The notes under the pieces are model-generated. The model did not search any database, was not told where the DNA came from, and worked only from the letters and a program-made list of their open reading frames with translations. From an uncultured Acidimicrobiia bacterium (GTDB taxonomy: Bacteria > Actinomycetota > Acidimicrobiia > Acidimicrobiales > AC-14), in the NCBI GenBank assembly GCA_963836205.1, contig CAWIIV010000007.1, positions 32,001-96,000 of the forward strand: a DNA stretch of 64,000 nt. Reading direction: 5' to 3'. Below, piece by piece: positions 2,415 to 6,266 of the stretch (position 1 is its first letter; every line of letters begins with the position of its first letter). Position numbers and translations under genes: made by a program.

Positions 2415-3145
2415 GGCACCAGGCTGCGGTGAAGGACGGCCAGGTTGGACGGCTCCTCCCGGAAGCCGATGCGGACGTAGAGGGCCAGGGCGGCATCGTT
2501 GCCGAACTGGGTGTTGACCACCGCCCGCTGGACGCCCCGTCGCCGCAGCCAGCGCAGGCCGTCGAGGGCCAGGGCCCGGCCCACGCCCGTGCGCCGGGCG
2601 CCGACGGCCACCGCCAGCCGCTGGAGGTAGCCCTGGTCACCGGCCCGGCCGGTGATGGCGTAGCCCGCGATCCACCGGCCCCCTCCGCCGGTGGCGACCC
2701 GGAATCGGGTGGACGGGGTGGCGGTGAGGGCCTCCTCCAGCCCGGCCCGATCGAGCCGCCAGAAGGGGCTGAAGGAGCCGGCGTCGACGTCGAGGATCGT
2801 GTCGTAGTCGGCCGGGGCCGCCTTGCGCAGGTGGTGGGGGCCGACCGCGGGCCGGTAGGGAACGCCGACCAGGTCGTGGCCCAGGAAGCGGAGGTGCTCG
2901 TGGGGAAGGAACCCGACCGCGAGGAACGGGCGCTGCTCGCTGCCGGCCAGGGCCGAGGTGATGACCTGGGTGTAGCCCCGGTCGGCGAGCTGGTCGAGGC
3001 ATCGGAGGAGGAAGTCGGCCGAGGGCGGCGGATCGTAGGGGAGGGGGGCGAGGTAGGCCACGTGACCGTCGCCGCGCCACGGGCCGGCGCGGGCCCGCTC
3101 CCGGCCCCATTCCAGGACCTCGGTCGTGACGGTCATCGGTGCCAT
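2411..3145 (-). CDS. GNAT family N-acetyltransferase
   Basis: GYLQRLAV..ARRTGVGRAL (acetyl-CoA motif A) and NTQFGNDAALALYVRIGF (motif B). Start at 3145 or 3136. Overlaps the next gene by 4 bp. Confidence 0.85.
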   Translation of the reverse strand: MAPMTVTTEVLEWGRERARAGPWRGDGHVAYLAPLPYDPPPSADFLLRCLDQLADRGYTQVITSALAGSEQRPFLAVGFLPHEHLRFLGHDLVGVPYRPAVGPHHLRKAAPADYDTILDVDAGSFSPFWRLDRAGLEEALTATPSTRFRVATGGGGRWIAGYAITGRAGDQGYLQRLAVAVGARRTGVGRALALDGLRWLRRRGVQRAVVNTQFGNDAALALYVRIGFREEPSNLAVLHRSLVP

Positions 3146-3212
3146 CGAGGATACCGGCGGGCGACCGGAGAGCATCGGTCGCCGCCGATCGCCGCCCCCG
3201 CCCACCCCCCCT

Positions 3213-3257
3213 TTGGGTGTGCAGTCGTGTCGGTATATCCACCACAACCGCACAACC
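3213..3257. repeat. imperfect inverted repeat (REP-like hairpin)
   Basis: GGTGTGCAGTCGTG...CACAACCGCACAACC in the divergent intergenic region. Confidence 0.4.
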
Positions 3258-3293
3258 AACCGTGCGAACGGAGTTCCCGGAGACGGCGGTCGG

Positions 3294-3309
3294 TAGCGTT
3301 GTCGCCATG
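3294..3309 (+). promoter_or_regulatory. -10 box TAGCGT with ATG 7 nt downstream (leaderless-type start; probable 5' exon)
   Basis: TANNNT at 3294-3299, ATG at 3307-3309, no Shine-Dalgarno in between. Confidence 0.55.
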
Positions 3310-5267
3310 TTGCGTCCTGAGAACTGGACCAGACCAGCGGGTGCGAGTCCCGCCCGGGTAATCGCCGGAGAGCCCGGTAGCAGGCCCCGGTTCGTCGCCG
3401 AGAGGCGGCGGGCTGAGCGGGGCGTCAAGAGCCTCTTTGGAGGGAGCAAGCGTGCGGGCCGTAGTGCCACCAGGCGCGAGTCCTGCAGCCTCGTCAAACG
3501 CACAACGGGGGAGCCGAGCCGCTCATGTCACGGCGAAGGCCACGTCCGACCGACTGGCGTTCCGGACACGCCCCTGGTCGGGTCCCCTCGGGGTACGGGG
3601 AGCGGCACGTACGCACGGTCAGGTTCGGAACAGGAGAGACCCGTCTGCGCAGCCTCGTCAGCAAAGACCGCTCGTATAAGCCAGTGGTGAAATCGAGCGG
3701 AGCGCAGCGGGAGTCCGACGGGGTCGTAGTACCGCTGATCGCCGGGATGAACCCGGCGGGAGGGAAGGGCCCCGACTTCGGTCACGCCGGAGACGGAAGT
3801 AAGCGCCAGGGCATGGCCGGGAACGCCCGGCCCAACTCCCCCGGCGGGCAGCCGCCCACCGACAACGTGCGAAAACTCCAGAACCGGCTATGGGCTGCGG
3901 CCAAGCAGTCTCCGGGTCGCCGCTTCCACGCCCTGTTCGACCGAATCCACCGCAGTGACGTGCTGTGGACGGCGTGGGAGCGGGTGCGAGCCAATCGTGG
4001 CGCCGCCGGGGTCGATCGACTGACCCTGGAGGCGGTGGAGGACTACGGGGTCGGGCGCGTGCTCGACGAGCTTTCCCGTGACCTCCGTGCAGGCACCTAC
4101 CGCCCGTCGCCTGTTCGGCGGGTGGAGATCCCCAAGCCCGACGGCCGGATGCGGCCCCTGGGCATCCCCACCGTGCGCGACCGGGTGTGCCAGGCGGCAG
4201 CCAAGATCGTCCTCGAACCCATCTTCGAGGCCGACTTCCTGCCGACCGAGCTTCGGTTTCCGACCGAAGCGCTCGGCCACCGACGCCCTGGAAGCCATCC
4301 GGGTGTCCTTCCCCCGAGGACGGCAGTTCGTCTTCGAGGCCGACATCCGCGACTTCTTCGGCCAGATCGACCACGACAGGCTGCTGTCACTGGTCGGCGA
4401 GCGCGTGTCGGACCGGCGGGTGCTCAAGCTCATCCGCCAGTGGCTGCGTGCCGGGGTGCTGGTCGAGGGGGTGCGCTCCGAGACGGTCACGGGCACGCCC
4501 CAGGGCGGGGTCATCTCCCCGCTGCTGGCCAACATCTACCTGCACGCCTTCGACCGGTCCTGGGCCGAGTCCGGCACCGGCGAGCTCGTCCGTTACGCGG
4601 ACGACTTCGTGGTGCTGTGCACGACCCGCAGCCAGGCCGAGACGGCCCAGGCCAGGGCGGCGGCCCTGCTGGGTGATCTCGGCCTGAGCCTGCACCCGGA
4701 CAAGACCCGTGTGGTCGACCTCCGGGAGGGCAAGGAGGGCTTCGACTTCCTGGGTTGTCATCTTCACGCCCGCATGTCGGGCCGGTTGTGGGAACAGCAG
4801 CGGGTCATCCGCTACTACCTCCACCGCTGGCCGTCGCAGCGGTCGATGAAGCGGGCACGACAGCGGGTCAAGGCCCTCACCGGCCGGAACCGGGTCGGCA
4901 TGGAGTTGGAGGACGTGATCTACGACCTCAACCTGTTCCTGCGGGGGTGGGGCAACTACTTCCGCACCGGCAACGCGGCGAATAAGTTCGTCTCCCTCGA
5001 CCGACACGTCGTGTGGCGGCTCAAGCGCTTGCTCATCAAGAAGCGGGGCCGCAACCTACGGGCAGGCCAGGCAGACTGCTGGACCCGCACCTGGTTCCAC
5101 GGCCAGGGCCTGCATCAGCTCATGGGCACCATTCGCTACCCGAAGGCGTCGTAACCATGTCCAGAAGATCGTCGGAAAGCCGTATGCGGGAAAACCGCAC
5201 GTACGGATTGAAAGGGGGATGGGGAAACGTGCTGGCCTTGCCGGCAACGCGCCCCTGACTACCAATG
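3310..5267 (+). mobile_element. group II intron (IIB-like ribozyme plus RT/maturase ORF) inserted at the start codon of the deacetylase gene
   Basis: 5' TTGCG at 3310. Domain V AAAGCCGTATGCGGGAAAACCGCACGTACGGATT at 5176-5209 (AGC triad, AC bulge). Domain VI with candidate bulged A5261. Removing 3310-5267 (or 3309-5266) restores GCC-ATG-GCT-GTG in frame. Confidence 0.92.
3813..5154 (+). pseudogene. ltrA: group II intron reverse transcriptase/maturase, no endonuclease domain, one +1 frameshift near 4248
   Basis: RT0 (AWERVRANRGAAGVD), RPLGIPTVRDR, (S)FGFRP, EADIRDFF, GTPQGGVISPLLANIYL, RYADD, FDFLG and X domain (LRGWGNYF), split across ORFs 3525-4676 and 4078-5154. Confidence 0.9.
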
Positions 5268-6266
5268 GCTGTGCTGGTCGAGAGCTCGCCGGCGTGCAAG
5301 GGGCACCGTCCCGGCGGGGGCCATCCGGAGCGTCCCGAGCGGCTCGACGCGGTGCTCGCCGGCGTGCGTTCGTCGCCGGTGGCGGACGCGGTGGTGTGGG
5401 CCGAGCCCCGGGTGGCCACGTTCGACGAACTGGCCCGGGTGCACCGGCCGGCCCTGGTCCAGGGCCTCGAGCGGTTCGTGGCCGGCGGTGGGGGATGGAT
5501 CGACCCCGACACCGCCGCCTTTCCCGGCTCCTGGGACGCCGCCCTGCGGGCCGCCGGCTCCGGCCTCGACGCTGTCGAGCGTCTCGAACGGGGGGAGGCC
5601 GACGCCGCCTTCTGCGTGGTCCGGCCACCCGGCCACCACGCCACCCCCACCGAGCCAATGGGGTTCTGCCTGTTCAACAACGTGGCCGTGTGCGCGGCCG
5701 CCCTGGCCGAGCGCGGCGAGCGGGTGGCGATCCTCGACTGGGACGTCCATCACGGAAACGGCACCCAGGACGCCTTCTACGCCGACGGCCGCATCCTCTA
5801 CGTGTCCACCCACCAGTCGCCCTTCTATCCCGGCACCGGTCGCTTGACCGAGACGGGCACGGGTGACGGGGAGGGACTCACCGTCAACCTCCCCTTCCCG
5901 GCGGGGACGACGGGCGACGCCTACCGGGCCGCCTTCGACGAGGTCGTCGGGCCGGTGGCCGAGCGCTTCGCCCCCACGTGGGTGCTCATCTCCCTCGGCT
6001 TCGACGCCCACCGGGCCGATCCGCTGGCTTCGCTGGCCCTCTCCTCCGGTGACTACGGGTGGCTCGTCGCCCGATCCGTCGCGGTGGCGCCCGCCGCCGG
6101 CCGCACCATCGCCTTCCTGGAGGGCGGCTACGACCTCGACGCCCTCACCGCGTCGGCCGCGGCCTCGGTGTCGGCCCTCGACGGTGTCGTCCACGACCCG
6201 GAGGCACCCACCACCGGCGGTCCCGGGCGCGACGTGGTCGCCGCCGCCCGCCGGCTACATACCTGA
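5265..6266 (+). CDS. histone deacetylase family (Zn-dependent deacetylase)
   Basis: [47 protein letters not shown]. Confidence 0.95.

Follow-up and report, generated by a model that had tools for sequence, protein, structure and literature searches.

A group II intron lineage located directly after the start codon of leaderless-type genes in Actinomycetota

Introduction

How does a group II intron come to lie exactly between the start codon of a gene and its second codon, with an ATG on either side of it? This question is raised by a 64,000-nt stretch of DNA from an uncultured Acidimicrobiia bacterium (GenBank assembly GCA_963836205.1, contig CAWIIV010000007.1, positions 32,001 to 96,000), hereafter the window, whose own coordinates we use throughout; all features described are on its forward (+) strand. 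In the window, a 1,958-nt group II intron (3310-5267, with ends that we read as UUGCG...CCAAUG) is placed between the ATG of a deacetylase gene (3307-3309) and its second codon. An original prediction, made from the letters alone, held that this intron targets start codons, perhaps those of leaderless genes. Bacterial group II introns known so far avoid genes or hide behind terminators. By comparing the intron with its relatives, we have arrived at a reading that we consider probable, namely that the DNA of leaderless-type gene starts is what its lineage retrohomes into, the insertion falling exactly at the boundary of start codon and second codon.

Results

The intron and its boundaries

The stretch 3310-5267 is a group II intron with the ribozyme domains D1, D5 and D6. 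In the window, Rfam gives matches to two D1 models, RF02003 (3335-3469, E 6e-20) and RF02005 (a partial match at 3487-3594, E 6.5e-9, whose 39.2 bits do not reach the gathering score of 49), and to the D5/D6 model RF00029 (5175-5259), at 37.8 bits slightly below its gathering score of 40. The RF00029 alignment places D5 at 5177-5209, with AGC as its triad, and a consensus fold of 11 copies places D6 at 5213-5263, where A5261, the candidate branch point, is bulged at a distance of 7 nt from the final base of the intron. D1-D3 together take up 374 nt, and the D1 core match begins 26 nt inside the intron. Group II membership is further indicated by a reverse transcriptase (RT) and maturase encoded in D4, by pairings of exon-binding sites (EBS1 and EBS3) with the exons, by presence in some alleles and absence from others and by the occurrence of multiple copies. 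In D5, the G of the AGC triad lies opposite A and not the usual U, a non-canonical pair in the Rfam alignment that is found at the same position in the sister copies.

At the left junction, the ATG at 3307-3309 is followed by TTGCGTCC, starting at 3310; at the right junction, CTGACTACCA-ATG (the ATG at 5265-5267) is followed by GCTGTG. Removal of 3310-5267 yields ATG GCT GTG CTG GTC..., a frame in which Pfam finds Hist_deacetyl from residue 20 (E 2.8e-89), and the 3' exon is the deacetylase coding sequence from codon 2 (5268-6266), with G5268 as the third intron-binding site (IBS3). Four genomes of the same genus carry the deacetylase gene without the intron, as TANNNT-N8-9-ATG GCC/TCC GTG CTG GT. 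(M-A/S-V-L-V-E). Because these intron-less alleles match the product of removing 3310-5267, the boundaries of the intron are confirmed. The window sequence, the Pfam match and the intron-less alleles all bear out what had been predicted of this locus, an ATG at both junctions and an in-frame ATG-GCT-GTG on excision.

The comparison with intron-less alleles, which the original prediction had called for, also confirmed the boundaries at a second site, a MoaB-like gene with a GTG start. Here the same-genus orthologues read TAC[CG]AT-N6-8-GTG (one has ATG), then ACC/AAC CTG CAG. As intron-less orthologues of GTG sites retain the GTG, the start-codon purine is part of the exon, and the alternative that the intron is sited before the start codon was rejected. 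Across 26 published orthologous MoaB-like loci, all without the intron (0/26), the box TAC[CG]AT-N6-8-RTG (R, A or G) is kept in frame in 14. The -10-like box is therefore a feature of the host, being kept in intron-less orthologues of both the MoaB-like and the deacetylase gene.

A mobile lineage in Actinomycetota

The window's genome holds seven full copies of the intron and one cut copy. Five of these copies are 99-100% identical, begin with TTGCG and occupy five different sites, and three, about 90% identical to the other five, begin with GTGCG. The 5' flanks end in ATG (6) or GTG (2), a TANNN[T/A] hexamer lies 6-8 nt ahead in 8/8, and the 3' ends are CCAATG in 7/7. The ligated frames encode a deacetylase, a PIG-L/MshB-like protein, a HIT protein, a MoaB-like protein and a 501-codon open reading frame (ORF), the names being read from the peptides and only the deacetylase checked with Pfam; behind one copy, the downstream ORF has merely 19 codons. 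Only L004 is clearly intragenic: it interrupts the ORF of a histidine kinase, in frame and directly behind a Val GTG (..GLGLSIVRAV/AKAHGG.., the slash marking the intron). The corresponding sequence of 13 published orthologues, none of which has the intron, is ..tcG/tcC atc g..; tcT is confined to the window's genome, where this synonymous G>T change makes TATCGT 7 nt before the GTG. Three further orthologues, from unpublished genomes, were left out of this comparison.

Beyond this genome, matches were found in 39 of the 58 genomes of the window's family, with 5' junctions then taken from five of them, and a scan of GenBank genomes with the intact RT as query returned 249 relatives, of which the best 80 (64-93% identity) were used. 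Most carriers among these best 80 of 249 are labelled as Acidimicrobiia or Acidimicrobiaceae metagenome-assembled genomes (MAGs). Further carriers are Acidiferrimicrobium, Kribbella, Humibacillus, Pseudonocardia, Propionicimonas, Arachnia, Embleya (chromosome and plasmid), Citricoccus and Solirubrobacterales, the cultured ones being Acidiferrimicrobium sp. IK, Kribbella sp. DT2, Embleya sp. NBC_00896 and Citricoccus sp. Judged from these sequences, the lineage is a mobile, endonuclease-less group II intron spread across Actinomycetota. The set of sites analysed below comprises 96 distinct 5' flanks (de-duplicated on 30 nt of flank) and 79 complete copies. Loci from unpublished genomes (G004, G012, G037, G038, G041, G054 and G055) were removed, G039, likewise unpublished, contributed no loci, and L016, L023, L024, L030, L071, L075, L080, L097, L101, L105 and L110 stand outside all counts.

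A start codon and a -10-like box at the target

A start codon directly precedes the intron at all 96 distinct sites (ATG at 68, GTG at 27 and TTG at one), so that the predicted targeting of start codons holds throughout the window's genome, its family and the 80 GenBank records. Each of the 96 5' flanks has RTG or TTG as its last three bases, and CCARTG closes every one of the 79 complete copies, so that the ATG on both sides of the intron is not a matter of chance. Furthermore, TANNNT lies 6-9 nt upstream of the start codon at 94 of the 96 sites, with a spacer of 6 (62 sites), 7 (26), 8 (5) or 9 nt (1), compared with 109 of 17,402 (0.63%) other RTG triplets of the same loci; the two remaining sites have TAGCGA and TAGGAC (the latter at L207). 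In the window, the host hexamer is TAGCGT (3294-3299), and the 7-nt spacer tgtcgcc (3300-3306) before the ATG is too short for a Shine-Dalgarno site. The prediction of a -10 box 7 nt ahead of an ATG with no Shine-Dalgarno sequence was thus sound for the window, and the box recurs through the lineage. These are the features of leaderless gene starts of the Actinobacteria type, with TANNNT about 6-8 nt before RTG and no Shine-Dalgarno sequence.

Most of the sites are true gene starts, because the RTG frame has the highest G+C content at third codon positions of the 3' exon in 64 of the 71 copies with enough 3' exon, and the ligated ORF has at least 100 codons in 58 of these 71. The 5' flanks showed no excess folding and no hairpin (-10.65 versus -10.89 kcal/mol).

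Non-canonical intron ends

Four registers are possible for the intron ends in the window, and the ligated product is identical for all of them. The original prediction correctly pointed out that TTGCG...AT ends cannot both hold, and it left two options, UUGCG...AUG and GUUGCG...AU. The first of these has stood and the second has not. EBS3, the C of GGGGUA-C-GGGG (3596; intron position 287), has G5268 as its partner, and across the lineage this position is complementary to the first base after CCARTG in 75 of 75 cases (A-U 29, G-C 21, C-G 19, U-A 3 and G.U 3), with a mutual information (MI) of 1.55 bits. Because the base after CCARTG covaries with EBS3, the 3' exon begins after the G of CCARUG. 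The ends UUGCG...AUG follow from this covariation together with the sister copies of the window's genome, which start GUGCG immediately after RTG, and the bulged A5261, which then lies at -7.

The first intron base is U (UUGCG) in 53 and G (GUGCG) in 43 of the 96 flanks, and every complete copy (79/79) has UG at its 3' end. The consensus ends of group II introns are 5' GUGYG and 3' AY, to which this lineage does not conform. Comparative evidence thus shows non-canonical ends, 5' UUGCG (GUGCG in sisters) and 3' ...CCAAUG. On a FastTree phylogeny of 77 complete copies, the first intron base has switched 14 times.

Three pairings with the target

IBS1 (3306-3309) consists of the deacetylase start codon and the preceding base, C + ATG. 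It faces the EBS1 hairpin loop CUCAUGUCA (3522-3530), in which C3524-G3527 form EBS1 proper, and the C and A of this loop stand opposite the invariant G and U of the start codon. The third EBS1 base against the start-codon purine (-3) gives A-U in 57 cases, G.U in 14, G-C in 12 and A-C in none; the loop sequence CAC occurs solely at GTG sites (15/15, one of them from a 5-nt flank, among 68 GenBank copies with both ends). The fourth base against position -4 gives C-G 72, G.U 4, U-A 2 and A-U 1, with five mismatches. At L171, the TTG start codon stands opposite an EBS1 of CAU, with a U-U mismatch at the third pair.

The intron ends in AUG (5265-5267), a triplet that copies IBS1 and tracks EBS1 as well. 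The third-last intron base is A with a loop U in 67 copies, G with C in seven and A with C in five, and G with U was never found. The change A>G in this terminal triplet arose five times on the same phylogeny, always on a CAC background.

The third interaction reaches the -10-like box. An EBS2-like AACG (3497-3500), within a 13-nt loop UCAAACGCACAAC that is single-stranded in an alifold consensus of 11 copies, faces an IBS2-like CGTT (3297-3300) made up of hexamer positions 4-6 and the first spacer base; in the window itself, the pairing reaches G3296, with AACGC (3497-3501) opposite GCGTT (3296-3300). When 84 sites were aligned on the hexamer, complementarity was 79% between hexamer position 5 and intron 190 (MI 0.78), 80% between position 4 and intron 191 (MI 0.64), 77% between the first spacer base and intron 188 (MI 0.74) and 96% between T6 and intron A189. 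At these 84 sites, hexamer position 3 gave no covariation signal (48%, MI 0.08), and no intron column covaried with positions 1-2 (TA). True partners form 3.02 of the four pairs against 2.36 for shuffled ones (maximum of 200 shuffles, 2.58). With the alignment anchored on the splice site, exon positions -9 to -12 give weak covariation signals only. A distance-anchored EBS2, taken as the longest helix between intron 180-200 and exon -24 to -4, was dropped, because its length hardly differed between true (4.34 bp) and mismatched partners (4.30 bp). Covariation therefore shows an EBS2-like helix that takes in the 3' half of the -10 hexamer and the base after it, separated from IBS1 by a linker whose length varies.

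Although no pairing partner was found for the TA of the hexamer, occupancy depends on it. The pairing rules of the five young copies are satisfied at 2,191 sites in the window's genome; of those with TA, 5/29 are occupied, and of those without, 0/2,162. By this count, TA at hexamer positions 1-2 is required for occupancy. There are 24 empty sites in the same genome that match the full rule of the young copies (TA.CGT, a spacer of 6-8 nt, C before RTG and G after), and the lineage has therefore not saturated its targets.

The encoded protein and the frame that leads to it

The RT/maturase gene of the window copy (3684-5154; start GTG at 3684-3686, stop TAA at 5152-5154) is broken: compared with intact copies, it has one extra nucleotide at 4244 and, at 4235-4272, a cluster of substitutions. 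The intact RT of L003 (489 aa) matches RVT_1 (2.2e-36) and GIIM (1.9e-16) in Pfam, which finds no endonuclease and nothing else past GIIM in this protein, whose end comes 32 residues after that domain. The closest solved RTs are GsI-IIC (6ar1, 2e-64) and 7uim (2.6e-58), both IIC and both above LtrA and TeI4h, in a comparison that had no class D/E/F structure to draw on. As for the damaged segment, 4235-4272 carries about nine substitutions in 38 nt versus L003 and L004, part of which L002 shares; it can form a hairpin, and a weak, chance-level minus-strand Rfam match falls there. Genuine decay of the gene, gene conversion and an assembly effect at a repeat are all possible sources of the damage.

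Ahead of the RT gene, a lead ORF of 127 codons (3307-3690; in frame with an ORF at 3139-3690) runs from the host ATG through D1-D3 to a TGA (3688-3690) that overlaps the RT start. In 65 of 79 copies, the frame from the host start codon is open for about 125 codons to a TGA overlapping the RT start (RTGGTGA), and in another six it stops at a TAA 7 nt before that start, so that it comes within 7 nt of it in 71 of 79; the other two frames over the same span contain on average 2.6 and 4.5 stops. The RT start codon is GTG in 38 copies and ATG in 38, and no purine-rich Shine-Dalgarno sequence precedes it in complete copies. This arrangement suggests that translation of the RT is coupled to the host start codon.

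Metatranscriptomes

In 24 metatranscriptome runs, at most 13% of the sampled words were present. Four soil or rhizosphere metatranscriptome contig sets (X1, X3, X4 and X10) cover only 3343-5286, at 88-99% likeness and with DNA carry-over possible; their cover is zero over 3100-3261 upstream and little or none past 5286. As this cover is confined to relatives of the intron, the contigs cannot show the intron ends, and they yield neither a start site nor a spliced joint nor proof of transcription. Such relatives are common in soil RNA libraries.

Discussion

The preferred reading can be set out as a mechanism. By the counts and the covariation, three RNA-DNA pairings read the target as TA-N-[NNT-N]-N4-7-[N-RTG]/[N], where the slash is the insertion point: EBS1 takes the start codon together with the preceding base, EBS3 the base with which codon 2 opens and the EBS2-like loop the 3' half of the -10 hexamer plus the base after it. 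What is recognized would be DNA and not an RNA 5' end, because the hexamer and the base before the start codon would be absent from a transcript that starts at RTG. The host promoter would then transcribe the intron. Should the transcript begin with the A of ATG, the 5' exon in RNA would be AUG only, and splicing would proceed through three EBS1 pairs and EBS3, leaving EBS2 and the fourth EBS1 pair for DNA targeting only. Ribosomes starting at the host ATG would read the 127-codon frame through D1-D3 and stop on the RT start (GUGGUGA), which has no Shine-Dalgarno sequence, and the RT would be made by coupling. Splicing would rejoin AUG to GCU and so restore the deacetylase mRNA. The window copy would rely on intact copies elsewhere in the genome, since its own RT gene is frameshifted.

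Several points weigh against this account. The sites are in part phylogenetically dependent, and they were de-duplicated on 30 nt of flank only. The putative pairing at hexamer position 6 rests on two near-invariant columns, and a 3' UG with a variable first base differs from textbook ribozymes, so that catalysis with such ends is presumed. The lead ORF does not fit eight of 79 copies (L206, L207 and L212 read beyond the assigned start), and it could partly reflect GC-rich sequence. The spacers of 8-9 nt in the four deacetylase orthologues would allow a leader of 1-2 nt.

A bolder version of the preferred reading, which we put forward tentatively as something that may be true, is that of a promoter-reading intron that invades melted or sigma-opened -10 DNA, has pppAUG as its 5' exon, expresses its RT from the leaderless start and uses the 3' copy of IBS1 in a new step of mobility or self-control. 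This touches on the question of what reads the TA, for which the candidates are the intron protein, sigma/RNA polymerase and selection after insertion.

The second candidate amounts to an explanation of its own, in which the TA and access to the top strand are obtained through host RNA polymerase and sigma, either at sigma-opened promoter DNA or at sigma-bound single-stranded -10 DNA. We regard it as unlikely. In its favour, introns without an endonuclease need single-stranded DNA, the variation in spacer length resembles start-site selection, and the choice of start sites by sigma is marked by this combination of TA...T, a 6-9-nt spacer and a purine start. However, the intron itself pairs with hexamer positions 4-6 and the next base, while in an open complex the -10 bases, above all the T at -7, are held by sigma, so that binding of intron and of sigma would be mutually exclusive.

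The third candidate, which we think more doubtful, is that insertion occurs wherever the pairings fit, and that only copies behind a working leaderless promoter persist, TANNNT being a product of selection after insertion. Such a history would explain why no intron column covaries with hexamer positions 1-2, and an intron that needs the host ATG for its RT would spread from such sites only. Nevertheless, the contrast in occupancy between pairing-fit sites with and without TA was found with five near-identical, hence recent, copies. The histidine kinase copy is equally hard to accommodate, as it lies in frame in a transcribed gene, where a promoter is not needed, and yet follows a newly made TATCGT. 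Given how young the five copies are, and given the kinase site, we favour recognition over selection after insertion.

The remaining explanations fare far worse. It is very improbable that this is a canonical GU...AY intron (GUUGCG...AU) that lies at a start codon by chance, with the repeated ATG a chance 3 nt; the four registers with one ligated product would permit it, and GU and AU do match textbook ends, but the base that covaries with EBS3 comes after the G, the sister copies start straight after RTG, the bulged A would sit at -6 and not -7, and a start codon precedes the intron at every site. Reverse splicing into the 5' end of leaderless mRNA (pppRUG/N), with the genome reached through cDNA, has in its favour that the site is 3 nt from the presumed RNA end, but we give it hardly any credence, since intron bases covary with the -10 hexamer and the base before the start codon, neither of which is in such RNA, and 3 nt of upstream homology would probably be too little to guide recombination. 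Least credible of all is membership of the IIB1 lineage of initiation- and termination-codon introns (the Avi.groEL/EcKTE56.groEL clade), which shares the habit of sitting at a translation signal (PMC12584367), but is opposed by a D1-D3 of 374 nt, a D1 core 26 nt from the 5' end, the lack of an endonuclease and the Actinomycetota hosts.

The Avi.groEL clade, to which the original prediction had linked this intron, nevertheless offers an instructive comparison. According to PMC12584367, the clade is proteobacterial, with an insertion of 300-700 nt in D1 and an endonuclease-bearing RT, and its groEL introns sit between bases 2 and 3 of the stop codon. The link failed because the intron described here has no 300-700-nt insertion at the base of D1 and no endonuclease, and its hosts are not proteobacteria. 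Like the Avi.groEL lineage (Michel et al., 2007, as given in PMC12584367), ours is a monophyletic intron lineage tied to translation signals, with insertion at an initiation codon in 96/96 cases. Unlike it, ours has Actinomycetota hosts, a compact ribozyme, no endonuclease, a -10 box in the target and non-canonical ends, and whereas the Avi.groEL introns lie within or near codons, these lie always exactly after the start codon.

Group IIC introns (B.h.I1, GsI-IIC) resemble the present lineage in their endonuclease-less RT, short IBS1 (3-4 bp), EBS3 and a target that combines a short pairing with a transcription signal. That signal is a terminator or attC hairpin in IIC and a promoter -10 box here, and IIC has no EBS2, in contrast to the covarying 4-bp EBS2-like helix of these introns. 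The D5 triad of IIC is CGC, in place of the AGC found here.

On the condition that transcripts start at RTG, the fourth EBS1 pair and the EBS2-like helix would have roles that recall EBS2a-IBS2a of IIB1 and IIB2 introns, described as an RNA-DNA pair that was found by comparative analysis and that integration into DNA requires but splicing does not (Monachello et al., 2021; PMC8643678). In those introns, which bear an endonuclease, EBS2a-IBS2a amounts to one base pair adjacent to IBS2, whereas here a 4-bp helix falls on a promoter element, 4-7 unpaired bases from IBS1. A more distant likeness is to Ty3-type targeting, in which a retroelement is placed at a fixed position relative to a promoter; Ty3 is a eukaryotic long terminal repeat element led by host transcription factors (mentioned in PMC7306698), whereas recognition here would be at least largely by RNA-DNA pairing. 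Our literature search found no paper linking group II introns with leaderless genes or -10 boxes, although supplementary intron catalogues could include members of this lineage, and the available parts of PMC4028801, PMC4424553, PMC3753933, PMC3552965 and PMC7306698 describe no introns at leaderless starts.

If the preferred reading is correct, the lineage supplies explicit target rules, including a promoter element, where the way in which Avi.groEL-type introns find their sites is stated to be unknown (PMC12584367). It would be a natural ribozyme with a 5' exon of 3 nt and without the conserved G1 and AY ends. The arrangement suggests a retroelement that seizes the start of both transcription and translation of its host gene, and splicing would be set directly between promoter and protein for many housekeeping genes of soil Actinomycetota. 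Potentially, such an intron may serve as a gene-targeting tool for leaderless genes.

Variant copies and unusual carriers

Two carriers fall outside the Actinomycetota by their labels, L163 and L207 being assigned to Bryobacteraceae and Woeseiaceae MAGs; binning error or transfer is possible. In Embleya sp. NBC_00896, copies L208 and L209 come from the chromosome and the 3.1-Mb plasmid of one cultured strain, and at L208 a second intron 3' end (CCAGTG) follows 2.4 kb downstream. Derivatives of the intron were seen among L020 (G056:C9), L053 (G010:C255), L167 and G022:C10 26772-30281. They include a 1,615-nt copy that has lost an internal segment, a copy of 2,789 nt and one that is interrupted by about 1.5 kb of inserted DNA. 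One further derivative is a remnant of about 170 nt in which the first ~35 nt are fused to the last ~137 nt, and which still follows TACGAT-N6-GTG.

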